Both the position numbers and the translations under genes were made by a program. A stretch of 64,000 nucleotides of DNA, taken from a phage. The notes below the pieces were generated by a model, which saw only the letters and a list, made by a program, of their open reading frames with translations, was not told where the DNA came from and searched no databases. The stretch's first letter is position 1. Each line of letters begins with the position of its first letter. The DNA lies in the sequence record PZ445134.1; one strand, written 5' to 3'. Below are positions 1-37,278 of the stretch, in pieces.

Positions 1-654
1 ATGAGTATAATCACCAACTTCTACACCACATTCGTTAGCTATATAATGAAGTAATTTTCCTTGGAGATAAAAATCCAACTGCATAACAACAGCACAGTTC
101 TGAGAACGCATATGACAGTGGGTATAAAGCTTACCATCACGAATATAATAAGTCACTGAGTCAGTACATGGATATTCAAGTGTTTCGTCTGAATCAAGCA
201 AAGCCTGATCAGAACTTTCTAGAATTTGGAACACAACTCTTCGAGAGTTAGGTTTTTCTTTAAGTTCTTTTAGAAGAGTTGGTAACTGGGCCGCAATTCG
301 TGGACCGTAGAAAGTGTTGAAGTTTGCAGGCAAAGCATCTGATTTAGGTTTAGAAATAAATTTAGCGACGTTAGGATATGCCTTAAATGCTTCTTCTGCA
401 TCAGTACCACCAGAAATCATAAATTTCCAGAAATCTTCAGCATATTCATAAGAGATGCGATTAATACGTGGGTCGGTCATTTTGAATGATGAAGGGGTAT
501 CAACAACTACTGTCATAGACCCAATTTCATTACAACGTCCAATACGAGAATCAGTAACGAATTCCGGGTTTTCTAAAATTTCACGATTGACAGCTTTAAA
601 TGCGGATTGAAAATCTGCGGCTTTAATATATTTCATTGTGTTATGTTTTCCCAT
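1..654 (-). CDS. 42: dCMP hydroxymethylase-like (thymidylate-synthase family), 3' end beyond window edge
   Basis: ATG at 654..652 with GAGGT Shine-Dalgarno 4 nt upstream; hand translation MGKHNTMKYIKAADFQ... contains TS-family motifs PNSRR and YPCTDS (catalytic Cys context); sits where gene 42 lies relative to gene 43 in T4. ORF runs off position 1. Confidence 0.6.
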   Translation of the reverse strand, partial: MGKHNTMKYIKAADFQSAFKAVNREILENPEFVTDSRIGRCNEIGSMTVVVDTPSSFKMTDPRINRISYEYAEDFWKFMISGGTDAEEAFKAYPNVAKFISKPKSDALPANFNTFYGPRIAAQLPTLLKELKEKPNSRRVVFQILESSDQALLDSDETLEYPCTDSVTYYIRDGKLYTHCHMRSQNCAVVMQLDFYLQGKLLHYIANECGVEVGDYTH

Positions 655-787
655 GTTTACCTCAATACAGTTATTATATACTCAATTCATAAAGCTTATT
701 TGAATTTCTTAGCGATGTTGATATAACGTAGAGCTTCGGCATCGATACTTCCAAGGACGCTATGAAGGAACGCGTCGACATAGTATT

Positions 788-937
788 CTAGTTGAACAGG
801 TTCTCTTTAATCACTTTAGCCGCTTTAGTTTCAAACAGGCCCATAAGGGCCTTTTTAAGAATTTGTTCGTTGTTGTTAATTTTAATAGTCAAAATCTCTT
901 CGTTAAGTTGGTGGTTAAAAGTTTTTCTAGAAATCAT
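788..937 (-). CDS. small hypothetical protein (~49 aa), coordinates approximate
   Basis: ATG overlaps stop of upstream 386-aa gene (ATGA coupling); below ORF-track size cut-off; contains GGCCC-ATAA-GGGCC hairpin internally. Confidence 0.3.
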   Translation of the reverse strand: MISRKTFNHQLNEEILTIKINNNEQILKKALMGLFETKAAKVIKENLFN

Positions 938-2094
938 TCTGGGTACCTCAAAGCGTCATCAGAGTTAGTTATATCAATAATAGATATAGAGTTTTCCGAT
1001 AACCCATTTTTAGATAACTGACGTTTATAATATCTTTCACAATATGTACACGTCGTCCCACAGATTTCATTAGCACAATCGAAATCTGGATGTTTGAACC
1101 ACCTTTTTTCTAAAAAGCCATCTAACAAAGAGGTTTCAATATTTACCGTATGTGAAAACTCAGTCTCATTTTCAAGAGTGAAAATGGTCTCTAAAGGCTT
1201 CCACAATTCCAACAAATTACCTTCAAATTTTTCAGAAGCATAAGCTTCAAGAACTTTCAAAATGTAGTCTGTGCTACCTGTACGTCCTGAAACTTTGAAT
1301 TGAGTGATACCAATATCATTATAAAGTTTCAAATCTTGAGGACGAACAAAACGAGTTCTCAACCAGTTAAATGGATCTGTATCACGAGCTTTAATACAGT
1401 GCTGCATTGGATATCCATTTAAGGATTTGGCATCATCTACTGTAACATCAGTGCTATGGAAAATATAGCAAGAGTCACGATAACTACAATGTGTTGTATA
1501 CCCTTTACCAGCATTAGAACAGAACTCATTTACAAGAACTTCAAATATTATATTGTTCTTATTACAAAACTCTGCTGCACGCTTCAGGAAAGAAACTGAA
1601 CGGTTCTTATGAATTCCACAGCAGACCTTTTTGATATTATATTGGTCATGCAAGTATTTGATTTGAGTTACAGCATCGACATGTAGAATTGTTGAAACTT
1701 CAATCTCAATGTCTTTATTGACTTCACGAACAATTTCCATAACAACAGGGTTAGCGATAGTAATACGCCAAACGCCTATTGACCAAAGATACTGAACATA
1801 ATCCTGAATAGCTTTCTTCTTCCACTCAACTAGTTCTCTTTTTGAACCAGGATTTATCGTGTTGAGTGTACAGTTAAAGCAAATACCTAATTCGTTACAA
1901 CGTTTAACGTAATCTTCTAACATCTTTTTGTCAACGTCAGGAAGCCTAAAATCAGGTCTGGCTGCTACAAAAGCCATTTCTCTTGTAGAGCCGTATACTT
2001 CGTTTATCAAGCTATTAGGATAAGTTTTATTGAGCTCTACGATTTTATCAAGAAGAGCTAAATCAAAATTCGTTCCGATTTTAAAGGTATTCAT
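934..2094 (-). CDS. Cys-rich 386-aa protein of unknown function; candidate hmC-sugar transferase or Fe-S enzyme
   Basis: ORF track; ATG at 2094; C-terminal cluster CANEICGTTCTYC (C-x4-C-x3-C-x-Y-C) plus internal Cys-rich stretch EFCSNAGKGYTTHCSYRDSC; weak resemblance to U32-family TIM-barrel proteins; last gene of the sugar cassette. Confidence 0.7.
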   Translation of the reverse strand: MNTFKIGTNFDLALLDKIVELNKTYPNSLINEVYGSTREMAFVAARPDFRLPDVDKKMLEDYVKRCNELGICFNCTLNTINPGSKRELVEWKKKAIQDYVQYLWSIGVWRITIANPVVMEIVREVNKDIEIEVSTILHVDAVTQIKYLHDQYNIKKVCCGIHKNRSVSFLKRAAEFCNKNNIIFEVLVNEFCSNAGKGYTTHCSYRDSCYIFHSTDVTVDDAKSLNGYPMQHCIKARDTDPFNWLRTRFVRPQDLKLYNDIGITQFKVSGRTGSTDYILKVLEAYASEKFEGNLLELWKPLETIFTLENETEFSHTVNIETSLLDGFLEKRWFKHPDFDCANEICGTTCTYCERYYKRQLSKNGLSENSISIIDITNSDDALRYPE

Positions 2095-2148
2095 TTTTGC
2101 ATCTCGCGTTAATTGTTGCGATGGTTTTTGCAGGTCTTACTTAAATTA

Positions 2149-2535
2149 TTATAGATTCGGTTTATATGATTTAAATGTTTCGAATTCGCCTTTATTCATA
2201 AGAGCTTTGAATTCGTCAGGACGCATAGCTTTGTCGTCGATAATCCAATCATATACTGGTTTATGTGTTAGCAAATTATGGTACTTCAATCCAATGTTTG
2301 CCAAGTTCTGAATCAGACTTGGGAGAATGTCAATTGCTATACGACCAGGACCGACTGACTTCATACCACGAGCAGTGTAAAGCGTTATGGTATGCCCTGC
2401 ATCATACAGGGCATTAATGGCAGACACCATTTCGACGTCTGGTTTGAAGTTCACGTAATCACGATTGTTATTCCACTCTGTTATACAATCATCGACATCA
2501 AAACAAAGATTAAGCATGTTTTCTACACGGTGCAT
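2149..2535 (-). CDS. HAD-superfamily phosphatase (putative sugar-phosphate phosphatase)
   Basis: HAD motif I FDVDDCIT near N-terminus, motif II TLYTAR, distal DD; start taken at ATG 2535 overlapping upstream stop (TAATG); ORF-track start 2550 is the alternative. Confidence 0.6.
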   Translation of the reverse strand: MHRVENMLNLCFDVDDCITEWNNNRDYVNFKPDVEMVSAINALYDAGHTITLYTARGMKSVGPGRIAIDILPSLIQNLANIGLKYHNLLTHKPVYDWIIDDKAMRPDEFKALMNKGEFETFKSYKPNL

Positions 2536-4220
2536 TAGATTCGTTCCCATTGATGAGTGATATCGCCACCGATTGGACGATAGGAAACACCAGTTTCTTT
2601 ATCAGTTAGTACCCATTTACCAGGATTTTTTGTAATCAGAGTAGCCGTTACAGGTTCTGCTACGTCATAACTAATAGAGCCGTCCTGAAGTACACGGCCC
2701 ATGTTACGTAATTGCTTAGTCAGAAGTTCCATACCTTTATAATATGCGGCTACCGCTTTAAGTGGATTATTCTTGAAATAACCACCTAATGCAATCCAGA
2801 TAATTGCCACTGCCAAATGATGATACTCGTTAAACGAACTCATCTTTCCATATTTGTAAACTAATGGATTGATGTTAATAGTCACATTACAAGTTGTTTC
2901 ATCAATAGTAAACTGTCCCCAGGTCGGATTAGCGTTGAATTCATCATACCCTGAAACAGCATAAAGCACTTTAGCTTCGTCATACAATTTTGGTCCGTAA
3001 ATCTTGGTTTCGCCAAAATATCCACGAGGGTCGATAAACTTGACTTCGCCGTTATCAGTAATCATAGTATTACTGAAGTTCGGGTCACCATGAATAACAG
3101 AGTACTGTCCCTGAGAACGGTTATGATAACGAATAAGGTGTTCTAAAGCTTGTTTCAACATTGGCTTCAGACGTCCGATCTTAGTGTAGTTCACATGTGT
3201 GATTTTACCAAATGAATCAATCAATGGTTGAATACTTTCACAACGATCAATAACTTTCGTATAGAATTCTTTAGTGAAATCACGACGAACAGTTTCAGGA
3301 CTTACAAAATAAGTGTCTGTGCTGAATTTCAGTGCGTCTAAAATTGCATCAACAATTTGTGGACGAGCAAGACTCGATTTGGATTTAATATATTCAAATG
3401 CCGGCTTACCTTTAATGCGTTCCATTTCAAAGTTATTTTCATTAACAGAAACTAACTGAGGAACTGAATCTGATTTCACTTTAAGATACCATGAAATCTC
3501 ATCTTTCTGAAGAGCTCGGCCCTGTTCGGTTAATGCGAATTTAGTTACAGTTTCTTCACCAATTTCAACGGCATTAAAACTACGATTAAGTTCACGAACT
3601 TCATGAGCTTTTTCAAGTTTAGGCATATCACCTAAATCAATTAGATTCATAAGCTCTGATTTATTGAATGCGCTGCCGTAAAGGAATTCTACGAAATCAC
3701 GTCCTTTGCAGTATTCATGAATTTCCTCATCAGTAGAACCCATATAGAATTCCCAGTCTTTGAACTGATAAATTCCTACAACATTACCACCTGTTGAACC
3801 TACGTTAGTGATATTTTCACCGTCGAAATTATATCGACATTCGTCGCCCTTAACATAGATTGCGTTAACATTCCAAGACCACGAACCAAAATCAGGAATA
3901 ATATCGCACCAGTTAACAATTACATTATGGCCGTCTAAATCTTTGTGTAATTTAGCAAGAGCATAAGCAGAACCGTACGCTTCATCAACTGTACGAATAG
4001 TCACATTGAACCCTTCTTGCTCACAATAAGCTCGAACAGTTTCAGCAAATTTTGAATGAACTACTACAATAATTTCATCTGCGCCAAGGTCAGAATAAAT
4101 TGTATACAAATTGCTCAGAATAGTGTCTTGTTTATAGTTAACAAGCACCTTAGGAATATGATGCGTTATTGGATACAAACGAGTTGCCAGTCCAGCACCA
4201 AGAATAACAGCTTTTTTCAT
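2535..4220 (-). CDS. bifunctional sugar-1-phosphate nucleotidyltransferase / protein-kinase-like sugar kinase
   Basis: N-terminus KAVILGAGLATRLYPIT matches RmlA/GlmU-type G-x-G-T-R-L-x-P-x-T motif; C-terminal HGDPNFSNTMI...FIDPRG matches APH/choline-kinase catalytic loop (HGDxxxxN) as in anomeric sugar kinases; ATG with GAGGA SD. Confidence 0.8.
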   Translation of the reverse strand: MKKAVILGAGLATRLYPITHHIPKVLVNYKQDTILSNLYTIYSDLGADEIIVVVHSKFAETVRAYCEQEGFNVTIRTVDEAYGSAYALAKLHKDLDGHNVIVNWCDIIPDFGSWSWNVNAIYVKGDECRYNFDGENITNVGSTGGNVVGIYQFKDWEFYMGSTDEEIHEYCKGRDFVEFLYGSAFNKSELMNLIDLGDMPKLEKAHEVRELNRSFNAVEIGEETVTKFALTEQGRALQKDEISWYLKVKSDSVPQLVSVNENNFEMERIKGKPAFEYIKSKSSLARPQIVDAILDALKFSTDTYFVSPETVRRDFTKEFYTKVIDRCESIQPLIDSFGKITHVNYTKIGRLKPMLKQALEHLIRYHNRSQGQYSVIHGDPNFSNTMITDNGEVKFIDPRGYFGETKIYGPKLYDEAKVLYAVSGYDEFNANPTWGQFTIDETTCNVTININPLVYKYGKMSSFNEYHHLAVAIIWIALGGYFKNNPLKAVAAYYKGMELLTKQLRNMGRVLQDGSISYDVAEPVTATLITKNPGKWVLTDKETGVSYRPIGGDITHQWERI

Positions 4221-4261
4221 GTTGTGGTCCTCATTGGTAAGTAGGAGTATTGTACACTATT

Positions 4262-4405
4262 CTAGTTAAAGCATTCATACTTTGCTTGTAGTCCAATCAT
4301 AATCCATCCGATTATAAGAGTCGGAATCATTACTGGAGCCGTTAAGCTCCAGTAGATAGTCATGACAAGCATCAATAGTAAAAGTCCTATTGTTATTGCT
4401 TTCAT
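4262..4405 (-). CDS. small hydrophobic membrane peptide (~47 aa), coordinates approximate
   Basis: Hand translation MKAITIGLLLLMLVMTIYWSLTAPVMIPTLIIGWIMIGLQAKYECFN; ATG overlaps stop of SIS gene (ATGA); occupies the position of imm in T4. Confidence 0.4.
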   Translation of the reverse strand: MKAITIGLLLLMLVMTIYWSLTAPVMIPTLIIGWIMIGLQAKYECFN

Positions 4406-5037
4406 TGTTCGCCTCGTAACATGGCACCTAGTGCACCGCCAGGGTGGAACTTAAGGAAGTCATTAGAGGTAAATCCACGTTCAGACGAAAGGTTGATAGC
4501 AAACGTATCGATAAGCGCTAACAACAATGTAGTGGACATAGTCGGAGCTAGAGAATTCTCATCAACCTCTACTGCGATGCCTGTACAGAACGTATAATCA
4601 AAAAGAGCTTCGTATTCTTGTGGAATGTCTGGGTTACAATGCAACAGAATCTGTTTGACGTTCGGACGAATCATTTTAAGATGCTTAGCCACGCCTATCA
4701 TTTCTTCAGTTTTACCGGAACGACTAATATGAATCAACACATCATTAGGCGCAATGAATCCTGCATCACCGTGAGAATAATGCCCAGTGTTCAAGTACAT
4801 ACTCGGGATACCGAGTGAAGCAAATGTCTCAGAAGCTTTAGTTGCAATATTAGCATTCTTACCAACACCTGTAATAATTACTCTGCTTTCATAATTACTA
4901 AGTCCCGGGCGTCGAAGAGTTTCTAGAATAGCATTATAACGAGCAGGGTTTTGACTAATTACTTTGGCCATAGCGGCCAAAGAAGAAGCTTGTTTTATGA
5001 TTGCGTCAATAGCGATAGTAATAGGAGTAGTTTTCAT
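4402..5037 (-). CDS. arabinose-5-phosphate isomerase, SIS domain only (KdsD/GutQ/KpsF family)
   Basis: VIITGVGKNANIATKASETFASLGIP and C-terminal SLAPTMSTT...FLKFHPGGALG align with my recall of E. coli KdsD SIS domain (VVVSGIGKSGHIG..., ...SHPAGALG); no CBS domains. Confidence 0.8.
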   Translation of the reverse strand: MKTTPITIAIDAIIKQASSLAAMAKVISQNPARYNAILETLRRPGLSNYESRVIITGVGKNANIATKASETFASLGIPSMYLNTGHYSHGDAGFIAPNDVLIHISRSGKTEEMIGVAKHLKMIRPNVKQILLHCNPDIPQEYEALFDYTFCTGIAVEVDENSLAPTMSTTLLLALIDTFAINLSSERGFTSNDFLKFHPGGALGAMLRGEQ

Positions 5038-7789: not shown

Positions 7790-7848
7790 TTAATTTCCTT
7801 TAGACGAGTTATTGTCTTTTGTTTGTTGATGAACTTATTATACTCCAA

Positions 7849-7866
7849 ATGGGACCGAAGTCCCAT
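7849..7866 (-). promoter_or_regulatory. stem-loop with UUCG tetraloop in regA-43 intergenic region
   Basis: Minus-strand RNA AUGGGAC-UUCG-GUCCCAU (7-bp stem) just downstream of regA stop, ~60 nt upstream of gene 43 ATG, followed by TATAAT-like hexamer. Confidence 0.4.
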
Positions 7867-7870
7867 TGCT

Positions 7871-10990: not shown

Positions 10991-11002
10991 ATTATTTCTC
11001 TC

Positions 11003-11203
11003 TTATTCGTAGAAGTCGGTAACTGTCCATGCGGAATTGCGATTAGACATTATTTTATTATACTCATCTTTAAAAGCAGATTTGAGCATTTGTTCAGTAA
11101 CAATATGTTCTTCACCTGAAAACGTATTGGTCAAAACATATTTTTTAATTTCAGGGACAACGAGAAGATGTTGGCCAGTTGAATACTCCATGTTGTTCTC
11201 CAT
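11003..11203 (-). CDS. hypothetical protein (45.2-like)
   Basis: 66 aa ORF, synteny with T4 45.2. Confidence 0.5.
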   Translation of the reverse strand: MENNMEYSTGQHLLVVPEIKKYVLTNTFSGEEHIVTEQMLKSAFKDEYNKIMSNRNSAWTVTDFYE

Positions 11204-11245
11204 TTAATTTGATGTGGTCATTATAACCACATCGTGTTAAAGCAT

Positions 11246-12934
11246 TTATGAAACAGTCATTACCGTAAATCGTCCAACTTTGCTCATTTGAAGATGTTGT
11301 CCATACCGTTGAGGGTCATGGTCTCGATGAGAGATAATGAACACATTAGTATTTTGTAAACTTCCGAGAATGGTATCTATAGCCTTAACAGCCTCAGAAT
11401 CGACAGCACCATCAAAAACCTCATCAAGAATCAGAGTGTTGATTTTAACACCGGAGACCTTTTCAGCAATATCTCGCCATGTAAACAACAATGCGATATC
11501 GATACGTGCCTTTTCACCTTGACTAAATGAAGCATAACTAAAATCTTCACGACCACGTGATTTTATAGATTCATTGAATTCTTCGTCAATAGAAAACACG
11601 TAATCAGCTTCCATGATTTTAAGATAATGGTTAATCTGCTTATTGAACAGAGGCACATATTTTTTAATGATAGCACCTTTAATACCAGAATCTTTTAACA
11701 TATCTGTGATAATACCACGATGGTATTTTTCAAGAACGATATCTGATTTTGTTTTAACGATTTTATCAAGTTCTTTTTGAAGCAAAGCTATCTCATCGGC
11801 ATGGTCGATAAATTCTGCCGAGGCTTGTTCTATTGCAGCTTTAACTTTCTTAGCTTTATCAATAGTGGCAATCATTGCTTGTTTCTTGGTACGAATATCA
11901 GATGCAAGGTCCTGTTTAGTCTTAACATTAGCTCTATATTCGTCCACTAGGACACTCAGATTATCTCTGTGACATGTAAGTTGCTCGAATGAGTTATTAC
12001 ATTCGTGAAGCTTATCGGTAATCTTAGAGACAATAGGATCACCCTGGTGCAACTGTGATGCACAAGTAGGACACGTACCACCATCATGATACATCTTAAT
12101 AACTTTGTTATACGAGTCAATTTTAGATTTAATCAAGAATGCTTCTTGTCCTATCTTGTTAAATGCCTCAGTAGGGTCTTCATCAAGAACGATATTAAGT
12201 AGTCGCTCATTAGCTTCTTCGATTTCTGCTTTTAATGAACGAGCTTCTTTGGCTAGGTCGTCATACATATTCTGTAGACGCGCTACATTATCACCAGATA
12301 ATTTCTTTTGACGTTCGATATTCTCGTTATAAATCTTAATTTGTTGGATAACACCATCTTTCTTGGCATCGAGAACTTGTCCCTGGGAATTAAGTTCTCG
12401 AACTTGAGACTTATTGATTTTATCCATTTCAGCGAGTGTGCCGACTTCTAAAAGGTCTTCGACAAGTTTTCTGCGAGCAGGGGTGCTAAGAGCCATGAAA
12501 GGGGTATACCCTGCCGTCCCAAGCACAACGATTTGTTTAAAAGACGCGTATGACATTCCGATGCTACGTTCAAATTCTTCTTGGAAGTCACGACTGCTGG
12601 CAGATTCATCAAGACGAACACCGTCAACGGAGATTTCGAAAATATTGGGCTTTTGGCCACGTTTAATGAAGTATTTTTTATCATCGAATTCCATCCAAAG
12701 CTCAACTAAGAGCCCTTTCTTGTTCGTGCTATTAATGATTTGCCCTTTCTTAACGTCACGAAATGGTTTACCGAAAAGTCCGAAAGTAACGGCTTCTAAC
12801 ATCGTAGATTTACCACCACCATTTTTACCAGTGATTAATGTCTTTTGGACTTTATCTAATTGGATATCAATAGGATTCCCGCCTACCGACATGATGTTTT
12901 GATAACGAACACGATTTAATTTAAATGATTTCAT
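11246..12934 (-). CDS. 46: recombination endonuclease subunit gp46 (SbcC/Rad50-like ATPase)
   Basis: 562 aa; Walker A GKNGGGKST at N-terminus, coiled-coil middle, CPTC zinc hook, C-terminal Walker B LILDEVFDG. Confidence 0.92.
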   Translation of the reverse strand: MKSFKLNRVRYQNIMSVGGNPIDIQLDKVQKTLITGKNGGGKSTMLEAVTFGLFGKPFRDVKKGQIINSTNKKGLLVELWMEFDDKKYFIKRGQKPNIFEISVDGVRLDESASSRDFQEEFERSIGMSYASFKQIVVLGTAGYTPFMALSTPARRKLVEDLLEVGTLAEMDKINKSQVRELNSQGQVLDAKKDGVIQQIKIYNENIERQKKLSGDNVARLQNMYDDLAKEARSLKAEIEEANERLLNIVLDEDPTEAFNKIGQEAFLIKSKIDSYNKVIKMYHDGGTCPTCASQLHQGDPIVSKITDKLHECNNSFEQLTCHRDNLSVLVDEYRANVKTKQDLASDIRTKKQAMIATIDKAKKVKAAIEQASAEFIDHADEIALLQKELDKIVKTKSDIVLEKYHRGIITDMLKDSGIKGAIIKKYVPLFNKQINHYLKIMEADYVFSIDEEFNESIKSRGREDFSYASFSQGEKARIDIALLFTWRDIAEKVSGVKINTLILDEVFDGAVDSEAVKAIDTILGSLQNTNVFIISHRDHDPQRYGQHLQMSKVGRFTVMTVS

Positions 12935-13185
12935 ATGTATTCTCTTCGAATGAAGTCCTCTACATATTTTAACATGTCATCTCTATCAGCAAAATATTCA
13001 TCTAGTTCTGCATACATAACAACACCTGGCGCGTACTCACAGGTAACATACATTGTTCCAAAGAAACGAGGAGTTGATTCCTCGTAATTCTCAGTCCATT
13101 CAACGACGCCAATATAACCGTCACCAATACTAAATTCATGACGATGGATTTCATAATCAGTCTTCGTCATTATACGCGTCCTCAA
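12931..13185 (-). CDS. hypothetical protein (46.1-like)
   Basis: 84 aa ORF overlapping gene 46 start; synteny. Confidence 0.5.
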   Translation of the reverse strand: MRTRIMTKTDYEIHRHEFSIGDGYIGVVEWTENYEESTPRFFGTMYVTCEYAPGVVMYAELDEYFADRDDMLKYVEDFIRREYI

Positions 13186-13414
13186 TACACGCTTCAGCCA
13201 TTTTAAGAATAGAGCCAGGAGTATCGTTGTCCATTATATTAAAGCTAAATTCAACAGCCCAGTCGGTGCAGACATGAACTGCTTTAACTTCATTACCTTC
13301 AACGCGTAATGGCTCAATCCAATACTTGATAGTGTTCTCGAATCCATCATCATCTTTAACGTCCATTTCAACTTCAAGCCTGAGTCCAGCATTGTTAAAT
13401 TCATCTAAAGTCAT
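13157..13414 (-). CDS. hypothetical protein (46.2-like)
   Basis: 85 aa acidic ORF; synteny. Confidence 0.5.
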   Translation of the reverse strand: MTLDEFNNAGLRLEVEMDVKDDDGFENTIKYWIEPLRVEGNEVKAVHVCTDWAVEFSFNIMDNDTPGSILKMAEACIEDAYNDED

Positions 13415-14430
13415 TGTGTTGCCTCAATATAAAGTTCGTTGGAATATTTGACCAGCGCTTCTCTGTCTTCGTCTGAGATATCTGGAATCGCGTCAATATA
13501 TTCTTTAATGATATCTTGAAGAGATTTAATCTCGATTTCCTGGTCGTCATCAGATTCAACACTGTTATCAACTTTAGAAACCATACGAAGAGAGTGAACT
13601 ACTTTTTCAAGTTCAGATTCAAACTTAGTCAACTCTGAATCAATTTCTGATACTATAACACGTACGGCTAGATTAGTATAATCAGAATAATTGATTTTGC
13701 CTTTAAACGGATAAGTGATTCGTCGATGCCATGTTGTTTCGTTAGGAATAAATTCCATACGTTCAACATCAGTGTCAAATACCCAAAATCCGCGCGGGTC
13801 GTTCTCATCACCTGCAGTAAGGGTCCATGGTGTCCCAATATATTTGACGTTAGCAGCTTCAGAGATTGTGTGGAAGTGGCCGGACCAGACTTGTTTATAG
13901 GTCTTTAAGAAATCAGGTTCAAGCCCATGAGACTTCATTCCTTTATAGAAATAAAAACCATTCAGTTCCCAGTGCCCAACACAATACGCTGCGGAAGAAG
14001 TCTTGATGTGCTCTAAGATTTCACCTGTATTTTCTTCGCACATCCATGGAACGATATCAATCAGACATCCGTCAAAATCTACAGTAGTTGGATGCTCGTA
14101 AATAGTAAAGTTTTCAAATTGAGTTAACAATTCAGAAACAGTGTTAGGTGTTATTGTATTCTTAAACGCCATGTCATGGTTTCCTATCGTGACATGAACG
14201 TGAATGCCTGCTTTAGAAATCATATCAACGATTTCACGATTGAATTCCATTGTACGATGTGTTATTGCTTTACGGACGTCAAACCAATCACCGTACTGAA
14301 TCCAAGTTTTAATCCCATGTTTCTTAGAGTATTCAATTGCTTGACGAATACCATCACGTTGAATATCTTGAACCCATGGGTCGTCTTGTTTGACTCCGAT
14401 ATGGAAGTCGCCTAAGTGCAAAATTTTCAT
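13411..14430 (-). CDS. 47: recombination endonuclease subunit gp47 (SbcD/Mre11-like phosphoesterase)
   Basis: 339 aa; MKILHLGDFHIG, GNHD, GHWELNGF calcineurin-like motifs. Confidence 0.92.
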   Translation of the reverse strand: MKILHLGDFHIGVKQDDPWVQDIQRDGIRQAIEYSKKHGIKTWIQYGDWFDVRKAITHRTMEFNREIVDMISKAGIHVHVTIGNHDMAFKNTITPNTVSELLTQFENFTIYEHPTTVDFDGCLIDIVPWMCEENTGEILEHIKTSSAAYCVGHWELNGFYFYKGMKSHGLEPDFLKTYKQVWSGHFHTISEAANVKYIGTPWTLTAGDENDPRGFWVFDTDVERMEFIPNETTWHRRITYPFKGKINYSDYTNLAVRVIVSEIDSELTKFESELEKVVHSLRMVSKVDNSVESDDDQEIEIKSLQDIIKEYIDAIPDISDEDREALVKYSNELYIEATQ

Positions 14431-14475
14431 ATTATTTCCTCATTAGTTAATTCATTCTATCATCCGCTTATAAAG

Positions 14476-14502
14476 CAAAAAAAAGGAACTCCGAAGAGTT
14501 CC
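14476..14502 (-). terminator. rho-independent terminator (minus strand)
   Basis: GGAACUC-UUCG-GAGUUCC hairpin followed by U8 on minus strand, between a small ORF and gene 47. Confidence 0.6.
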
Positions 14503-14504
14503 TA

Positions 14505-14675
14505 TCCACATAGTACACCATACAGAGGCTCATTTGAACTTTTAAATCGAATGGGCTTGTATGTAATAGTTCCTTCGGCTTTAGCTTTATCATAAGACTC
14601 TTTAAAACGCCTCATTCTTTCTGCTTTGCCTTTACGGATTTTATCGAAATTTTCAGAGGTCAGGTCGTTCGTCAT
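14505..14675 (-). CDS. small hypothetical protein (~56 aa), coordinates approximate
   Basis: Hand translation MTNDLTSENFDKIRKGKAERMRRFKESYDKAKAEGTITYKPIRFKSSNEPLYGVLCG; basic; immediately upstream of terminator. Confidence 0.3.
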
Positions 14676-14714
14676 GCATAATCACCTCTCAGAAAATACC
14701 TAAATCGATTTCTC

Positions 14715-14936
14715 TCATCGTTTCCACCATTTCTTAACTTGAAATGAGTCAACCCACACGAGTTGTTTTGGGTCGGCCCTTATAACAGGTGGACAAATTT
14801 CTGTAATAGAACTGTCGTGATATTCCTTTTCAGAGATTTTAACACAAAGAGGACCTCCCAATTTAAGGGTGAACCCTGCGTTCAGCTTAAGACGTTTAAA
14901 CTTTGTTTGAACTAGCGCCATTAATGATGTCCTCAA
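14715..14936 (-). CDS. hypothetical protein
   Basis: 73 aa ORF from track; overlaps upstream ORF by ~40 nt so start uncertain. Confidence 0.3.
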   Translation of the reverse strand: MRTSLMALVQTKFKRLKLNAGFTLKLGGPLCVKISEKEYHDSSITEICPPVIRADPKQLVWVDSFQVKKWWKR

Positions 14937-15219
14937 TAGCCTGACGAGTAGTAACCCACTGGATTTTAATTAACTTGTCATTATATGGTTGTCGTAGAAT
15001 ATCCCGAGATTTCTTAATAGCATATTCGTAAGCTTCGAAGTTGTTTTGAATTGCTGCTTCTTGAGCATGAGCATAAAGACGGTTTAGTTCAAAACGATTC
15101 TTTTTAAGAATCTTTTCGGATTTTTTACGTGCTTCAGCTTCATTTTTCTTTTGGATTTCTTGTAGCATTTTAGCTACTGCATCTTCTGCTTCTTTATTTT
15201 CAATAATCTCGGTAGTCAT
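14896..15219 (-). CDS. hypothetical protein
   Basis: 107 aa ORF, charged/coiled; occupies T4 alpha-gt/47.1 interval. Confidence 0.5.
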   Translation of the reverse strand: MTTEIIENKEAEDAVAKMLQEIQKKNEAEARKKSEKILKKNRFELNRLYAHAQEAAIQNNFEAYEYAIKKSRDILRQPYNDKLIKIQWVTTRQAIEDIINGASSNKV

Positions 15220-15220
15220 A

Positions 15221-15436
15221 TTATCTCATTAAATTAAAATAAAAACGTCCATCCTCTTCAATACAGAACTCATACTCAACCGGAGTCCCATTTATCGAAA
15301 ATGACACGTCATGTGGGTTCAAAGGGTCGATGTCAAAATTAATTTTAAATTCACGACCCAACAGTTTTACCAAATAAGGGATTGCTTCGTCAAAAGGTTC
15401 TTCTAAGTAGTTAGAGATGTCAATTGTCATCCTCAT
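15221..15436 (-). CDS. hypothetical protein
   Basis: ORF-track 97 aa ORF trimmed to internal ATG (MRMTIDIS...) to limit overlap with gp55. Confidence 0.4.
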
Positions 15437-15977
15437 ATAAAAAATCCAAACTAGGCGAATCGCTAACAACTTCCTTCTTTTCAGCCCCAGGAGCTTTATA
15501 AGCGGATTCTTCATAATGCGTCATTTTATCGTAGATGTCTTGAATAAACGTTTCATCTACCAACGCTACCATATCATCGTCATGACTGTCGTAGACGTTA
15601 TGAACGAAGTAACTATATTTCTTTGCAACTTCCTTACGTTCTTTTTTGATACGTTGGACAAAAGCATTAAAACAAGCTCGAGTTATGTATGCATGTGGGT
15701 TATTGTACTTAGTTTCGTCGAAATTATGAAGACCCTTAATAGAGGCTTCAATCCCATCTGCAATCATCTCCTGCTTCCAAGACTGGGTATATCCTGAAAA
15801 GTTGAAACGTTTGGACAGGCCTTCGGCGATAAGCATAATTGCTAAACCGATGGTATCATTCTGACGAATAATTTTGTTTGGGTCTTTATTATTTAAGAGC
15901 TCCTTTTTCCACTCGATTATAGCGGCGAGAAGCTCTTTATTATTCACATAGTTATTTTTAGGTTTTTGTTCAGTCAT
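15420..15977 (-). CDS. 55: late-transcription sigma factor gp55
   Basis: 185 aa; [35 protein letters not shown] matches my recall of T4 gp55. Confidence 0.9.
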
Positions 15978-16132
15978 AAGTACCTCTTAGCTCAATTCAT
16001 AGGTCTATTATATCATAATATTTAGAGACCTATCTTAAAGCACGAGATACTATCAAAGATACATAACTTTCATAAAGTTGTCGACTTAAAATTCACCAAA
16101 CTTTTATTCGGTTATAGTAATTCGAGATAGTT

Positions 16133-16360
16133 TCATTCTATTTCCTTTGCTGCAAATAAGGCAGCATCCAACGAATCAAATTGGTCAACGAAATCAATAT
16201 TCAATGCATCGTCATCCGTAGCATATAACCACCATTGTTTGAATTCGTATTCTAGAATAAATCCAGGACCTTCAATCTGAGGAAGACCTAGACTATTTGT
16301 ACTAACTTCATAACCAGCTAGACGCAGGTCATTAATCAAAGTTTCTGTTAATACGTTCAT
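16133..16360 (-). CDS. hypothetical protein
   Basis: 75 aa acidic ORF. Confidence 0.45.
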   Translation of the reverse strand: MNVLTETLINDLRLAGYEVSTNSLGLPQIEGPGFILEYEFKQWWLYATDDDALNIDFVDQFDSLDAALFAAKEIE

Positions 16361-16689
16361 TTTACCGCCTTAACAATTTTCAGGTCAACGAATTTTTTCT
16401 TACGTTGATTTTTCATACGACGGATAGTCTTTTCAGAGATTTCATGTTTCTGATAAGCTTTAGATTCAACACCAAATGCAGCAACGTCAAATTCAGAAAG
16501 AATATATTGTACTAGAATTTCACGAATAGAATTACGTCCAATTTTCTGGTCGTGTTTTTGCATGATTTCATAAAGACGGAATTCCCACGCGTCAAGAACT
16601 TGAGGAGTAACAATATTGCCGGATTCAAGAAGAGCAACAACTTTATCGAAAGCGAAAGAATTAACTACGTTTTTGATTTTAGTAGACAT
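16357..16689 (-). CDS. hypothetical protein
   Basis: Start moved to MSTKIKN because ORF-track start lies inside the early promoter at 16727..16755. Confidence 0.5.
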   Translation of the reverse strand: MSTKIKNVVNSFAFDKVVALLESGNIVTPQVLDAWEFRLYEIMQKHDQKIGRNSIREILVQYILSEFDVAAFGVESKAYQKHEISEKTIRRMKNQRKKKFVDLKIVKAVK

Positions 16690-16726
16690 ATTATTTTCCT
16701 CGGTTATTTTATTATCCAATGAGAGC

Positions 16727-16755
16727 ATTATACTCTGCTCTCAAGAGTTTGTAAA
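16727..16755 (-). promoter_or_regulatory. T4-type early promoter (minus strand)
   Basis: Minus strand TTTACA-17 nt-TATAAT; near-identical copy at 48038..48066. Confidence 0.55.
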
Positions 16756-16758
16756 TCG

Positions 16759-16971
16759 TTATCCGAACTTTTTAGCGCCTTTCCAGCCTTCGTACATAAC
16801 TGCACAAGTCAGTAATACAGCGTGCTGGCATTCTTTGTATTTGTAAATCCAGAACCAGCGTAAAAAGTCTTCATCCTCAACACCGTTGAGTTTCATGTTG
16901 GCAAAGAATTCGGCACGTTCTTCACGAAGTTGCCATGACACAATATTTTCAGGATTCATTTTGTGTTCCAC
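16759..16971 (-). CDS. hypothetical protein
   Basis: 70 aa ORF. Confidence 0.4.
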   Translation of the reverse strand: MEHKMNPENIVSWQLREERAEFFANMKLNGVEDEDFLRWFWIYKYKECQHAVLLTCAVMYEGWKGAKKFG

Positions 16972-17183
16972 GCCCCGTTTTCGTCGATGAACTTAATCCA
17001 GTCATTTACAGACCATTTAGTTGTGTCACCCTTTGGATTAACATTTAAAGTATATAATCCCTGCTTAAAAAGCATTCGTTTGATATTCATAATTTCCTCA
17101 ACTGTAACGATAACATTCGTTAGCTTTACGTTTGGCTTCAGTATGAGAAGTATTATAATCATAATCTTCTTTACTGTAAACAT
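16956..17183 (-). CDS. hypothetical protein
   Basis: 75 aa ORF. Confidence 0.4.
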   Translation of the reverse strand: MFTVKKIMIIILLILKPNVKLTNVIVTVEEIMNIKRMLFKQGLYTLNVNPKGDTTKWSVNDWIKFIDENGAWNTK

Positions 17184-17391
17184 CTTTTTTCAACTTACGA
17201 ACTTCTTTGCGGAGTTGTCGATTCATTTCGTTCTTGACTTCAGAATCAACGCCTTTCATACGTTTCCATTTATCCGAGCGGAAAATGTTTTCAACCATGT
17301 CTTTGTGGCTAACACCGTCAGGAGCTTTACGTTTACCAAAATAGTCGTAATCACGAACTTTCAAATCTTTACGACGATACGTTTTACCCAT
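17098..17391 (-). CDS. hypothetical basic protein
   Basis: Start at internal MGKTYRRK; Lys/Arg-rich. Confidence 0.4.
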   Translation of the reverse strand: MGKTYRRKDLKVRDYDYFGKRKAPDGVSHKDMVENIFRSDKWKRMKGVDSEVKNEMNRQLRKEVRKLKKDVYSKEDYDYNTSHTEAKRKANECYRYS

Positions 17392-17398
17392 AAGTACC

Positions 17399-17647
17399 TC
17401 AGAGGTTGATTGATACAATGCGTTTGATAAAATTCACTTCACTTACTGAAAGGTCTTTAAGACCGATTGATTCTAAACGCTGAGTAAGCGTCAACATCGG
17501 GATATAGTCCCAATGTGTTTTAGACGTTTGATAAGTACGGACGCCATTAGCAATTTCAACGTTCAAATCAGAAATGGTAATGAATACCAGACGTTCGTTG
17601 TTTACATTAAGAGTTAGAACAACTTTCTTCGAATTCAGACTAATCAT
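17399..17647 (-). CDS. hypothetical protein
   Basis: Start at internal ATG (MISLNSKK) with GAGGAA SD and upstream GTTTACA -35. Confidence 0.4.
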   Translation of the reverse strand: MISLNSKKVVLTLNVNNERLVFITISDLNVEIANGVRTYQTSKTHWDYIPMLTLTQRLESIGLKDLSVSEVNFIKRIVSINL

Positions 17648-19223: not shown

Positions 19224-20518
19224 TGGTGTTTAACCCTATGCATGATTTCTTTATTTTTGCCGAGATTAAATCCGCGTTCGTTCGGATTTCCAAGATAACC
19301 GCATGTTCTTCTTATTGTGTTCATCTTTTTAGGATCAGTTTCTCCGCAAACTGAACAAACAAATCCGTTTTCAGTAGGAGTCATTTCATGAGTACTTCCA
19401 CATGTAAAACATTTATCTACTGGCATATTAACACCAAAATAATCTAAATGTTGTGCAGCATAATCCCATACAGCCTCAAGACCTTTTAGGTTATTTTTCA
19501 TATCAGGAAGTTCAACATAAGAAATGTGACCACCAGTCGCAATGAAATGATATGGCGCTTCACGAGAAATCTTTTCAAACGGAGTAATATTTTCTTCTAC
19601 TGAAACGTGGAAACTATTAGTGTACCAGCCTTTATCAGTAACATCTTTTACACTTCCATATTTTTCGGTATCAAGTTTACAGAAGCGATAGCACAGGTTT
19701 TCAGCAGGAGTAGAATACAAGCTAAAAGCAAAACCGGTTCTTTCAGTCCACTGCTTAAGACGAGCATTCATTTTAGTCAAAATTTCCTGTCCAATATCAC
19801 GTCCGACAAGAATATTCAATTCGTGAATACCAATGTATCCTAAAGACACTGAACTTCTGCCGTTTTTAAATAACTCAATTATATCATCATCAGGTTTAAG
19901 ACGAACCCCAAATGCACCTTCTTGGTAAAGAATAGGAGCAACAGTAGCTTTAACTCCTTTTAAGGAACTAATTCTACACATCAAAGCTTCAAAACACAGA
20001 TCCATTCGTTCATTAAATAGCTCAACAAATTTCTGTTCATTGAATTGTGTTCCAATATAAGAATCTAACGCAATACGAGGAAGATTCAGTGTTACAACAC
20101 CAAGATTATTACGCCCATCAAGAATTTCATTACCAGTCGAATCTTTCCATACGCTCAAAAAACTACGGCAACCCATTGGAGAAACAGGAACAGATGAACC
20201 GGTGATAGCTTTATTATTCTTAACTGAAATAATATCAGGATACATTCTTTTGCTTGCACATTCTAACGCAAGCTGCTTAATATCATAGTTCGGGTCGTCT
20301 TTATAAAGATTAACACCCTCTTCAACGAACATAACAAGTTTAGGGAAAATAGGAGTTATCCCATCGCGACCAAGACCTTTAATACGATTTTTCAGAATTG
20401 CTTTCTGAATCATTCGTTCAGTCCAGTCAGTTCCCGTGCCAAATGTAATGGTTACAAAAGGCGTTTGTCCGTTTGAACTGAAAAGTGTATTTACTTCATC
20501 ATTATATTCAGCATGAGT
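19220..20518 (-). CDS. nrdD: anaerobic ribonucleoside-triphosphate reductase NrdD, exon 2
   Basis: C-terminal glycyl-radical motif RTCGYLG and Zn-ribbon CxxC pairs; 5' boundary is the inferred 3' splice site (approximate). Confidence 0.8.
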   Translation of the reverse strand, partial: THAEYNDEVNTLFSSNGQTPFVTITFGTGTDWTERMIQKAILKNRIKGLGRDGITPIFPKLVMFVEEGVNLYKDDPNYDIKQLALECASKRMYPDIISVKNNKAITGSSVPVSPMGCRSFLSVWKDSTGNEILDGRNNLGVVTLNLPRIALDSYIGTQFNEQKFVELFNERMDLCFEALMCRISSLKGVKATVAPILYQEGAFGVRLKPDDDIIELFKNGRSSVSLGYIGIHELNILVGRDIGQEILTKMNARLKQWTERTGFAFSLYSTPAENLCYRFCKLDTEKYGSVKDVTDKGWYTNSFHVSVEENITPFEKISREAPYHFIATGGHISYVELPDMKNNLKGLEAVWDYAAQHLDYFGVNMPVDKCFTCGSTHEMTPTENGFVCSVCGETDPKKMNTIRRTCGYLGNPNERGFNLGKNKEIMHRVKHQ

Positions 20519-21539
20519 CGCAAATTCATGCCCGTTTATATGAAACAACAAAATTTGGATAGTCCATAGATATGCAACGTTCTTTTATAGTGCTAGGATG
20601 AAAATTTAGCGCTTTAGCTGCTTCTATATAAGACGTATACTTAATACCGTCAACAACCACATATTCAGGAACTTTATGAATAGTAGTCTTAATACTCAAA
20701 ACAAGAGGATGAGTTTCGACTTCACTTTCAGTGCAATTTAAATATTCCGCTGCTTTTTTAAAACTTCTAAAAGTTTTATTTTTAAGCTTTATCGATACTT
20801 GTTTTTTACTTTTTCGACTATTGATATTATTTTGCACATGTTCCTTAGATCTTCTGTTTTTAGCATAATATTCAGCCACAGAAGATTTTATATTGTTTTT
20901 ATGAGATTCGGATAACACTTTACCCTTATGAGCATCTCTTAATTTTTGAATATGTTCTTCAGTATCCGGATGCTTATAAAACTTTTTACCGCCTATGGAT
21001 TTATTTAAACATTTTTTGCTATAAAAATATTTACGTATGACCTCTTCTTCATGTTTTAATGCATCTTTATAACTATCAAATGTTTTTAAAATTATCCATT
21101 TAGTAGGTGTATCAGTTTTTAAGCGTTCATTTATATACTTAGATGACGTTGTGTAAGTTTTCCAGTTTGTGGGCTTGTTTTTAATTGTTCTAAATTTTTT
21201 ATAACCGATATAAATGTCGCCATTAGAAAACTTAACTAAGTATGTAAATGCGTCTTTATCTTTTATTTTAGTACAACGTCTTTTTATCCATTTCATTGTT
21301 TCACCTCGTATTCATAAGATAATCTTATTTATACAAGATGACTGCTGCATGTCGCCATGCAGATTAGACTATATCTTCATCTTTCGATGCCGGCCGTTTC
21401 GAATAGCATTAGCTTCTATTCTACACCGCTACATTCATCACGGTTAGTCGTTAGGCATTTAGTTCAAAAGAACATTTAGCACGGGATTGTCTACTAGAGA
21501 GGTTCCCCGTTTAGACCGGTTTTACATGAGCCTGAATTA
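20519..21539 (-). mobile_element. group I self-splicing intron (T4 sunY/nrdD-type), boundaries approximate
   Basis: Minus-strand core elements in order: P-like UAAACGGGGAACC, Q-like AAUCCCGUGC, R-like AACGACUAA, S-like AAGAUAUAGUCU, and CUGCAUG-GCGA-CAUGCAG hairpin; in-frame UAA at intron start; ORF in 3' part. Confidence 0.7.
20526..21296 (-). CDS. intron-encoded GIY-YIG homing endonuclease (I-TevII-like)
   Basis: 256 aa; N-terminal FTYLVKFSNGDIYIGYKK GIY-YIG motif; NUMOD-like repeats and basic C-terminal DNA-binding region. Confidence 0.8.
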   Translation of the reverse strand: MKWIKRRCTKIKDKDAFTYLVKFSNGDIYIGYKKFRTIKNKPTNWKTYTTSSKYINERLKTDTPTKWIILKTFDSYKDALKHEEEVIRKYFYSKKCLNKSIGGKKFYKHPDTEEHIQKLRDAHKGKVLSESHKNNIKSSVAEYYAKNRRSKEHVQNNINSRKSKKQVSIKLKNKTFRSFKKAAEYLNCTESEVETHPLVLSIKTTIHKVPEYVVVDGIKYTSYIEAAKALNFHPSTIKERCISMDYPNFVVSYKRA

Positions 21540-22082
21540 AATTAACTCATACGCCTGGAATGCATCATATACGTCTTTTTCTGTTTTAGATTGGGCATAA
21601 TTCAACGCATCAGCGATTTGCCATTTTTCTGCATCCTCAATATGTTTTGCATAGGTGCGTTTAACATAAGGAGAAAGTACTTTGTCTACATTAGCAAAAG
21701 TCGTTCCGCCGTATTGATGGGAAGCAACCTGTGCGGTAATTTGTGCCATAATTGCAGTAGCAACACCAATCGATTTAGGCGTTTCAATTTGAGCATTGCC
21801 TAATTTAAATCCATTCTCAAGCATCCCCTTTAAATCGACTAAACAGCAATTAGTAAACGGAAGAGCAGGAGAATAATCAATATCATGCATGTGAATGATT
21901 CCGCTTTCATGCGCATGCATAATAAAAGACGGGACCATATTTTTGGCAATGTGCTTAGACACAATACCAGCCATAAGGTCCCGTTGAGTTGGAAAAACAC
22001 GAGAATCTTTATTAGCATTCTCGTTCAAAAGATCTTTATTAGTTTTATGAATTAATCCTTCAATTTCTTTTTCAATTTTCAT
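21540..22082 (-). CDS. nrdD: anaerobic ribonucleoside-triphosphate reductase NrdD, exon 1
   Basis: 181 aa N-terminal segment; ORF ends at a stop inside the intron; 3' boundary is the inferred 5' splice site. Confidence 0.8.
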
Positions 22083-32896: not shown

Positions 32897-32901
32897 TTTG
32901 A

Positions 32902-33459
32902 TTAGTTTTTGTAATATCGTAAAGGGTTGATATGGAATGAAAGCATTGCGCGTGGAATAGGACGACTCAAAAGACTCTTAAGTTTCCAACCACAGTAAAC
33001 ACGCAGATAAAATGTAATACCACCAACCTTAAGATAAGGTATAGCAGCGAATAATCCCCATGCCGACTCGTTCCAAACTAAAAGATATCCATGATGTGCC
33101 GGATCAGGAGATCCAGATTTAGTTTCGGCGTTGCCTTTATAGTGCCATTCTGATGAAGCTTCGCGACCTAAAACATGATACGAAAAATTATATGCTTTGT
33201 TGCGCCATAGCCAAGCTACGCGTTGAGCATATTTACCTATAACAGGAATTTTACGTATTTTAGACCAACGTTCAACATGGCCGCGGTCACCATCGATAGG
33301 ATTATCGTAAGTCATCATCCAGTCAAAGCCATAAGGTAGTTTACCGGTTTTTTCACTATGGAATGGAACTACAAATGGTGCTAGAATAATTGCTAAAATC
33401 GCTGCGATCCAATCTATAGGAACAAGAACAACCCAACTTATGTATTTTAAAAATTTCAT
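32902..33459 (-). CDS. membrane protein
   Basis: 185 aa; N-terminal TM segments. Confidence 0.5.
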   Translation of the reverse strand: MKFLKYISWVVLVPIDWIAAILAIILAPFVVPFHSEKTGKLPYGFDWMMTYDNPIDGDRGHVERWSKIRKIPVIGKYAQRVAWLWRNKAYNFSYHVLGREASSEWHYKGNAETKSGSPDPAHHGYLLVWNESAWGLFAAIPYLKVGGITFYLRVYCGWKLKSLLSRPIPRAMLSFHINPLRYYKN

Positions 33460-33492
33460 ATATCCTCTCTTAGTTTACAAGGATATTTATAC

Positions 33493-33519
33493 AAAAAGCC
33501 CCAACCTTTCGGAAGGGGC
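33493..33519 (-). terminator. rho-independent terminator, copy 2 of 3
   Basis: Same 22-nt hairpin as 32875..32896 followed by U-run. Confidence 0.6.
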
Positions 33520-33526
33520 AGGTAAA

Positions 33527-33829
33527 TTAGATAGATTTAGGCTCTAATTTTATTTTCATGAACTCTGCAAATTGTCTGGCAGTTTTTATGCCTTGTTCAT
33601 GACATTCAAATGCATCATCACAGGGGCTATTTTTGTAATGCTTTGCCATATACTTATAAAATTTTTCAGAATTCTCAACATTTTGAATTTCGAACAAAGT
33701 ATATACGTTTTTAATCCCTGATTCCATAAAGTTGTCAAAGTACGGGTCGACATATGCAGTGCCAACTATAGGAGTTGTTGCTGCAAAAAACCCCAGCATC
33801 GCCACGATGGCTATCGCTCTTAAGGCCAT
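33527..33829 (-). CDS. secreted/periplasmic protein
   Basis: 100 aa; signal-peptide-like N-terminus MALRAIAIVAMLGFFAATTPIVGTA. Confidence 0.5.
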   Translation of the reverse strand: MALRAIAIVAMLGFFAATTPIVGTAYVDPYFDNFMESGIKNVYTLFEIQNVENSEKFYKYMAKHYKNSPCDDAFECHEQGIKTARQFAEFMKIKLEPKSI

Positions 33830-33841
33830 ATAGGCCTCCTG

Positions 33842-34054: not shown

Positions 34055-34081
34055 ATATACCTCTTGGTTAGATATTAGTAT

Positions 34082-34663: not shown

Positions 34664-34672
34664 ATCACCTTC

Positions 34673-36783: not shown

Positions 36784-36791
36784 GTTTACCT

Positions 36792-37250: not shown

Positions 37251-37278
37251 TTTGATTTCTCCTCTAGTTGACAGGTCT

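Follow-up and report, generated by a model that had tools for sequence, protein, structure and literature searches.

The interval between genes 47 and 55 of an RB69-type phage contains a-gt.2 to a-gt.5 homologues and a predicted hairpin-promoter module and lacks an alpha-glucosyltransferase gene

Between gene 55 and gene 47 of the phage DNA analyzed here, a stretch of 64 kb that is referred to as the window, four small genes are found that are homologous to a-gt.2, a-gt.3, a-gt.4 and a-gt.5 of phage T4, and these are separated from gene 47 by a spacer of 71 bp containing a terminator-like hairpin and a predicted middle promoter (Table 1). In this region every gene is encoded on the minus strand, with gene 55 as upstream boundary of the interval and gene 47 as the first gene downstream of the junction. 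The limits 14431-15436 enclose the true interval together with an overlap of 17 nt between the last small open reading frame (ORF), i.e., a-gt.5, and the end of gene 55; the open frame of a-gt.5 extends to 97 aa inside gene 55. Searches for RNA families (positions 13000-17000, E <= 1) and for the late promoter sequence TATAAATA (positions 11000-17500, either strand) yielded no matches.

Table 1. Positions in the window of the genes and predicted elements around the 47-55 interval and of the modification cassette.
Feature	Position	Strand	Evidence
Arabinosyl-5-hydroxycytosine cassette, outside the interval	1..5037	-	between gene-42 position and gene 43; RB69p048-p055 homologues
Gene 47 (SbcD/Mre11-like recombination nuclease subunit)	13411..14430	-	339 aa, start at 14430; 76% identity to T4 gp47, 100% to RB69 gp47
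Gene 47 leader, 23 nt	14431..14453	-	Shine-Dalgarno GAGGA 14441-14437; predicted transcript start near 14447
MotA-dependent middle-promoter-like element	14454..14480	-	pattern scan: MotA box TTTTGCTTTA 14480-14471, 11-nt spacer, -10 hexamer TAGAAT 14459-14454
Intrinsic-terminator-like hairpin and U-run	14477..14503	-	AGGAACUC-UUCG-GAGUUCCU; stem-loop 14503-14484
a-gt.2 homologue (57 aa, Pfam DUF5486)	14502..14675	-	75% identity to T4 a-gt.2, 98% to RB69p067; Pfam E = 4.5e-28
a-gt.3 homologue (68 aa)	14715..14921	-	71% identity to T4 a-gt.3, 94% to RB69p068; phrog_1648 E = 2.8e-34
a-gt.4 homologue (107 aa, Pfam DUF2654)	14896..15219	-	58% identity to T4 a-gt.4, 100% to RB69p069; Pfam E = 1e-27
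a-gt.5 homologue (71 aa, Pfam DUF5491)	15221..15436	-	47% identity to T4 a-gt.5, 100% to RB69p070; Pfam E = 5.8e-13
Gene 55 (late sigma factor)	15420..15977	-	stop at 15420; 91% identity to T4 gp55, 99.5% to RB69 gp55

Sequence comparison places the source of the window among the RB69-type phages of the genus Mosigvirus, for which this 47-55 interval is standard. A region of 2.6 kb around the interval is 99.8% identical to the Escherichia phages AV112 and AV113 and 98.4-98.9% identical to PhAPEC2 (98.9%), SSE1, APCEc01 and many other Mosigvirus genomes, and the DNA polymerase encoded in the window shows 99.9% identity to that of RB69. The proteins of the interval and its flanks are 94-100% identical to RB69p066-p071 (NC_004928), and gene order, spacer, hairpin and promoter are identical in kind in both phages, while a few base substitutions distinguish them and the U-run following the hairpin comprises six residues in RB69 and eight in the window. 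These few base differences at the junction rule out that the window originates from RB69 itself. AV112, although 99% identical to the window over the first 20 kb, is ruled out as source as well, as it differs by additional DNA at the 46.1 position and by several further indels.

The initial annotation had listed four or five ORFs of 56-107 aa in the interval. Small ORFs are indeed present, and four of them, of 57-107 aa and all on the minus strand, are real genes, while plus-strand ORFs of 59, 50 and 31 aa found no support. The four genes show homology to the T4 proteins a-gt.2 to a-gt.5 and are arranged in the same order between 55 and 47. The matches to the Pfam families DUF5486, DUF2654 and DUF5491 are above the family cut-offs, no Pfam family was matched by the a-gt.3 homologue (68 aa from the ATG, 73 aa from an upstream TTG), and all four proteins match PHROG families annotated as of unknown function (E = 1e-24 to 7e-37). 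The most widely conserved of the four is a-gt.4, with homologues in Karamvirus, Jiaodavirus, Muldoonvirus and Lazarusvirus. No relatives of the four proteins were found among solved structures. Single-sequence structure prediction yielded an all-helical model of four helices for the a-gt.4 homologue (pLDDT 75), for which a comparison with the PDB returned no significant fold match (best E = 4), and a model too poor for use for the a-gt.5 homologue (pLDDT 59). In the GenBank record of RB69 these genes are already named a-gt.2 to a-gt.5, the PhAPEC2 record notes the similarity to T4 for three of the four, and no mention of a-gt.2 to a-gt.5 or of DUF2654 was found in the literature searched. T4 carries a-gt.2 to a-gt.5 in the same interval alongside the alpha-glucosyltransferase gene (alpha-gt). 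Judged by homology and gene order, the small ORFs are therefore conserved neighbours of alpha-gt and not its replacement.

At the 3' end of a-gt.2 a hairpin is found with an 8-bp stem, four G-C pairs and a UUCG loop that is directly followed by U8 (seven more U past 14484, to 14477). The hairpin lies on the coding strand, where its 5' arm shares bases with the stop codon of a-gt.2 and its U-run with the A/T-rich beginning of the MotA box. The initial annotation had described this UUCG terminator-like structure at 14476..14502; it is present, shifted by one position (14477-14503). The predicted folding energy is -11.3 kcal/mol (z = -3.0). Hairpins of this class occur once in the 64 kb with 0.34 expected from dinucleotide shuffles, a rarity that by itself is weak. 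The hairpin is invariant in four Mosigvirus genomes, and the U-run varies from 6 to 8 residues among Mosigvirus genomes. Other genera have a hairpin of different sequence at the same position, with 96.9% of cells paired and seven of eight pairs changed on both sides, counts that are partly circular as the cross-genus hairpins were picked by scanning. Because of its location on the a-gt.2 stop codon, its invariance in Mosigvirus and the hairpins at the equivalent position in other genera, the hairpin is taken as a real feature. It has the layout of an intrinsic (Rho-independent) terminator, i.e., a stem-loop with a direct U-run on the transcribed strand downstream of a gene, and in the GenBank record of PhAPEC2 a terminator is annotated at the same place, called by ARNold. 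By this layout, it probably stops transcription.

The hairpin is followed by a putative middle promoter. For T4, the consensus of middle promoters was given as a MotA box, (a/t)(a/t)(a/t)TGCTTtA, located 12 +/- 1 bp upstream of a sigma-70 -10 hexamer (PMC2988021). The element in the window has both the MotA box and the -10 hexamer of a T4-type middle promoter, its spacer of 11 nt being at the short end of this range. In T4, two middle promoters activated by MotA and AsiA were mapped at the corresponding place, P47 with its start at 36576 and PmobB (Palpha-gt.1) with its start at 38682 (PMC2988021, Table 1). These show the same architecture, with the MotA box TGCTTTA 11-12 nt upstream of a TAnnnT -10 hexamer, and the same position relative to a-gt.2 and gene 47; however, while T4 has two promoters whose activity was mapped there, the window has a single predicted promoter at their position. 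By analogy with T4 it is presumably active in this phage as well, and the transcript start is predicted from the T4 promoters P47 and PmobB, since these initiate 6-7 nt past the -10 hexamer. Annotations of a putative MotA and of an anti-sigma factor are found in the AV112 record, for genes located outside the window. The gene 47 leader is invariant in RB69, PhAPEC2 and AV112, and promoter and leader of the window are most similar to those of Dhakavirus JS98, which precede 47.1. From the sequence and the promoter mapping in T4, we infer a scheme in which a hairpin is followed by a promoter: gene 55 and a-gt.5, a-gt.4, a-gt.3 and a-gt.2 would form one gene run, its transcripts would end, or be stabilized, at the UUCG hairpin on the a-gt.2 stop codon, and the MotA-dependent promoter just past the hairpin would restart transcription into 47, 46.2, 46.1 and 46.

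In T4 the gene order is 47, 47.1, a-gt, mobB, a-gt.2, a-gt.3, a-gt.4, a-gt.5, 55. T4 and the window agree in the order and orientation of the flanking genes 47 and 55 and of a-gt.2 to a-gt.5, and in both the UUCG hairpin on the a-gt.2 stop codon is followed by a MotA-box promoter. The difference lies in the DNA between the start of gene 47 and the stop of a-gt.2, which comprises 2283 bp in T4 (36448-38730) compared to 71 bp in the window (14431-14501). The T4 DNA additionally contains mobB, alpha-gt, a second hairpin-promoter module and 47.1. In the window, the 71 bp read on the minus strand contain the hairpin and U-run, TTTTGCTTTA, the 11-nt spacer, TAGAAT and the 23-nt leader with GAGGA, and lead directly into the ATG of gene 47. 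This contiguous junction of gene 47, spacer and a-gt.2 is common to 143 phage records. The T4 module after a-gt.2 consists of GGAGC-UUCG-GCUCC, TTGCTTTA and TAAAAT and precedes mobB, the one after alpha-gt consists of AGGGC-UUCG-GCCCU, AGCTTTA and TATAAT and precedes 47.1 and 47, and the mapped middle promoters PmobB (38682) and P47 (36576) are located at these two modules. The same two modules surround alpha-gt in RB18, a T2-type phage without mobB. Thus, the alpha-gt cargo is bracketed by two module copies in T4, while the window has one copy and no cargo, from which it follows that alpha-gt is most likely cleanly absent rather than replaced.

Both T4 glucosyltransferases were searched for with tblastn. 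Neither alpha-gt (~400 aa; best E = 0.53, i.e., chance level) nor beta-gt (~351 aa; best E = 1.9) has a homologue in the window, and no match of either at E <= 1 was found in AV112, a close relative whose complete genome (167,943 bp) is the basis for the whole-genome absence and differs from the genome of the window by several indels. The T4 proteins mobB and 47.1 likewise have no tblastn match in the window or in the whole of AV112. Thereby, no alpha-gt homologue is found between a-gt.2 and gene 47 and no beta-gt homologue next to gene 42, and the initial statement that the T4 alpha-gt slot between 47 and 55 holds only small ORFs is confirmed by tblastn and by the 71-bp spacer; the whole-genome search it called for, run on AV112 (99% identity to the first 20 kb of the window), found no glucosyltransferase gene. 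The matches to alpha-gt in the phage collection comprise a group with >=90% identity (Tequatrovirus), a group with ~65% (Klebsiella phages, e.g., a Jiaodavirus member) and ten weak matches, and beta-gt homologues are found in T4, Karamvirus, Moonvirus and Salmonella and Serratia phages, among others. It was reported that alpha-gt is restricted to T-even-type phages and that glucosyltransferase genes are missing in RB69 and JS98 (Petrov et al., 2010, PMC2993671), and for RB69 no homologue of T4 alpha-gt, T4 beta-gt or T2 beta-alpha-gt was found (Thomas et al., 2018, PMC6024577).

Outside the interval, the window contains a gene cassette for another DNA modification. It encodes a partial 5-hydroxy-dCMP synthase, a U32-like protein, a phosphatase, a nucleotidyltransferase-kinase and an arabinose-5-phosphate isomerase, with functions as assigned in PMC13326640, and the Pfam domains found, Peptidase_U32, NTP_transferase (with kinase) and SIS, fit the expectation. 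The proteins are 97-99.7% identical to RB69p048 and RB69p050-p055, and the homologue of p049 shows 92-96% identity in two frames. The cassette thereby combines a ThyA-family 5-hydroxy-dCMP synthase with sugar-activation genes at the gene 42-43 position, the same position as the genes of the arabinosyl-5-hydroxycytosine system of RB69 and DLP3 (Lee et al., 2026, PMC13326640), to which those of the window are 92-99.7% identical. The first (RB69 gp46:47) and the second arabinosyltransferase (gp3) are not encoded within the window; their genes were found in AV112 only. The gene-42 homologue of the window has only 26% identity to T4 gp42, and the gene-42-type enzyme of RB69 was shown to make 5-hydroxy-dCMP (Lee et al., 2026, PMC13326640). 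RB69 DNA contains mono- and di-arabinosylated 5-hydroxycytosine in ether linkage (Lee et al., 2026, PMC13326640), the same modified bases were found in NP, a second Mosigvirus (PMC13390438), and the presence of arabinose rather than glucose on RB69 and NP DNA was reported (PMC6024577, PMC13326640, PMC13390438), for both phages by LC-MS and NMR. By analogy to RB69 and NP, the DNA of this phage is probably modified with arabinose as well. Alpha-gt would then be dispensable, as the DNA modification would be made by another gene set beside the gene-42 position and close to rIIA, and this set would yield mono- and di-arabinosylated 5-hydroxycytosine. The initial annotation had proposed a switch of modification chemistry with loss of the glucosyltransferases. 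The switch is supported by the 99% identity of the cassette to RB69p048-p055 and by the published chemistry, and it is deeper than supposed, as the base itself differs, being 5-hydroxycytosine and not hydroxymethylcytosine (PMC13326640); for the loss, parsimony points both ways.

It is very probable that the window contains the standard Mosigvirus 47-55 interval with one hairpin-promoter module, from which alpha-gt is cleanly absent, and that the phage uses arabinose chemistry instead. That a diverged or split glycosyltransferase is still encoded in the interval, in the small ORFs or in another frame, is extremely improbable. The two arabinosyltransferase candidates of this phage group escape Pfam, and sequence searches alone can therefore miss phage glycosyltransferases. 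However, the longest ORF of the interval has 107 aa compared to 400 aa of alpha-gt and 351 aa of beta-gt, each of the four ORFs corresponds one-to-one to a homologue in T4, where alpha-gt is present as well, none of the families DUF5486, DUF2654 and DUF5491 is a transferase family, prediction gives a small helical protein for the a-gt.4 homologue, and the tblastn matches of alpha-gt and beta-gt are at chance level only (E >= 0.5). A hidden glycosyltransferase was rejected as candidate, as tblastn, Pfam and PHROGs yield only the a-gt.2 to a-gt.5 families. Unlikely, with more weight than a hidden transferase, is that the hairpin, as a stable CUUCGG-type RNA structure, mainly serves to protect early transcripts at their 3' ends after processing or to modulate how much transcription reads on into gene 47. 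The homologous hairpin of T4 after a-gt.2 is followed by UAUAUUGCUUU, a poor U-run, and the varying length of the U-run in Mosigvirus is likewise compatible with a role other than termination. T4 early transcripts read through into middle genes, and CUUCGG hairpins recur in T4 intergenic regions. In contrast, the 8-bp stem with an uninterrupted U8 is the textbook layout of an intrinsic terminator, ARNold called it as a terminator in PhAPEC2, and a promoter is located directly downstream, as expected if transcription stops at the hairpin.

The 47-55 interval was compared in nine genera, as the initial annotation had suggested. Alpha-gt is present in the interval in only two of them, Tequatrovirus (T4, RB18) and Jiaodavirus (SmallBear). 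In the other seven, i.e., Mosigvirus, Dhakavirus (JS98), Karamvirus (UFV01), Gelderlandvirus, Muldoonvirus, Lazarusvirus (KARL-1) and Krischvirus, no alpha-gt is found there and the interval contains only two to five small ORFs. The empty slot says nothing about the modification chemistry, because Karamvirus (e.g., CC31, PG7), without alpha-gt in the interval, carries beta-gt. The empty 47-55 slot is the majority state and alone shows neither a loss nor a change of chemistry, and its use as support for the switch in the initial annotation does not hold. In a neighbour-joining tree of gp46, gp47 and gp55, Mosigvirus is the sister of Tequatrovirus (100/100 bootstraps), the only robust pairing of this three-gene tree, whose deeper nodes were not relied on; the proteins of the two genera are 82, 76 and 91% identical, respectively. 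As to the direction of change, parsimony permits either two gains or several losses.

A loss, in which the common ancestor of Mosigvirus and Tequatrovirus had alpha-gt and both alpha-gt and 47.1 were deleted in Mosigvirus along with the change of its modification, is a serious alternative that we rate somewhat below even; the deletion could have occurred by recombination between the two hairpin-promoter modules that flank the cassette in T4. The sister relationship of the two genera is in line with it, as is the position of alpha-gt, which directly follows the first hairpin-promoter module in both Tequatrovirus and Jiaodavirus. The alpha-gt proteins of these two genera are 65% identical, matching the flanking core genes (66-77%), and therefore show no sign of recent transfer, which fits an old vertical descent followed by losses. 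Furthermore, 47.1 is found in T4 and in Dhakavirus JS98 and is absent in the window, and therefore at least one deletion occurred at this junction in the Mosigvirus line, and alpha-gt would have no substrate once hydroxymethylcytosine was gone (PMC13326640). On the other hand, with seven of the nine sampled genera lacking alpha-gt in the interval, a single gain requires three or more losses compared to two gains, alpha-gt adjoins a homing endonuclease in both lineages (mobB in T4, an HNH gene in Jiaodavirus), which would favour lateral spread, the 71-bp spacer contains no alpha-gt remnant, and the deeper branching of the tree beyond the sister pairing is weak. A further reading, speculative and quite improbable, is that the module after a-gt.2 is a recombination or insertion hotspot, a middle-promoter PeSL for gain and loss of modification cargo, often with a homing endonuclease. 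In PeSL cassettes, composite terminator/promoter elements of T4-type phages (Arbiol, 2010, PMC2839356; Comeau, 2014, PMC4122927), a stem-loop and a promoter are located exactly at the indel boundary between related phages, as is the case for the window and T4. However, PeSLs contain early promoters and lie in hyperplastic regions, while the module of the window is of the middle (MotA) type in a core-gene neighbourhood, and PeSLs are a repeated motif, while only two strong UUCG hairpins are found in the 64-kb window, which rules out the UUCG hairpin-promoter module as an abundant repeat.

The standard Mosigvirus interval described here is an ordinary and already known feature, its genes being named in the RB69 GenBank record. 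The lack of glucosyltransferase genes in RB69 was published in 2010 at the latest, and the arabinosyl-5-hydroxycytosine chemistry was worked out between 2018 and 2026. Of minor interest is that the T4 cargo is bracketed by a module that is present once in the window, which gives a simple picture of a possible cargo exchange. If the module were indeed a hotspot, the distribution of alpha-gt among the genera would go back to cassettes that were exchanged repeatedly at a single portable regulatory junction. As an empty alpha-gt slot is common in T4-like genera, it is unusable as evidence of a modification switch, and the informative locus for the modification chemistry is the one next to gene 42.

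In addition to the stem-loop at 14503-14484 (minus strand), which overlaps the a-gt.2 stop codon, the window holds only one other strong UUCG hairpin, and it is followed by TGGAGTATAAT, which is similar to an extended -10 element. The T-run after the hairpin at 14503-14484 (window 14477-14484) comprises eight residues in the window, seven in the closely related complete genome AV112, and six in RB69 and PhAPEC2. Among the Mosigvirus genomes compared, its length shifts the distance between hairpin and MotA box, while the spacing of the promoter is unchanged. A MotA box with -10 hexamer is matched at two more sites, one immediately upstream of the 45.2 homologue and the other within gene 46; these sites parallel P45.2 and P46i(2), middle promoters that have been mapped in T4.

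Features of the window and their coordinates
Feature	Window position	Strand	Remark
Gene at the gene-42 position	1-654	minus	truncated by window start
RB69p049 homologue	699-937	minus	matches split over two reading frames
Second strong UUCG hairpin	7848-7867	minus	AAUGGGAC-UUCG-GUCCCAUU; between regA and DNA polymerase gene
Two further MotA box and -10 hexamer matches	11244, 11784	minus	
Short 46.1 gene (84 aa)	12934-13149		in place of a longer AV112 ORF
Segments noted for AV112 mosaicism	20497-22078, 32897-35226, 48072-51275		

Compared with AV112, the window is a mosaic, in which several stretches lack a megablast match; these unmatched segments correspond to the nrdD/homing-endonuclease and tRNA regions of AV112, and past window position 51275 the identity falls from 97-99% to about 91%. 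At the 46.1 position AV112 carries an ORF of 861 bp (14911-15771 of the AV112 stretch L003) that weakly resembles homing endonucleases of the HNH and GIY-YIG types.

The product encoded at the gene-42 position shows 99% identity to RB69 gp48 but only 26% to T4 dCMP hydroxymethylase, and RB69 gp48 is a 5-hydroxy-dCMP synthase (Lee et al., 2026, PMC13326640). As the neighboring RB69p049 match lies in two frames, this ORF is frameshifted relative to the RB69 record, which could be a genuine difference or a mistake in one of the records; at this position only a 49-aa ORF is annotated in AV112.

In AV112, the homologues of imm and imm.1 are located close to the spackle gene (37354-38032 of the stretch L005, 87.3-88.0 kb of the genome). 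While T4 encodes imm and imm.1 between genes 42 and 43, RB69-type phages carry them elsewhere, and in this phage group their T4 location is taken by the arabinose cassette.
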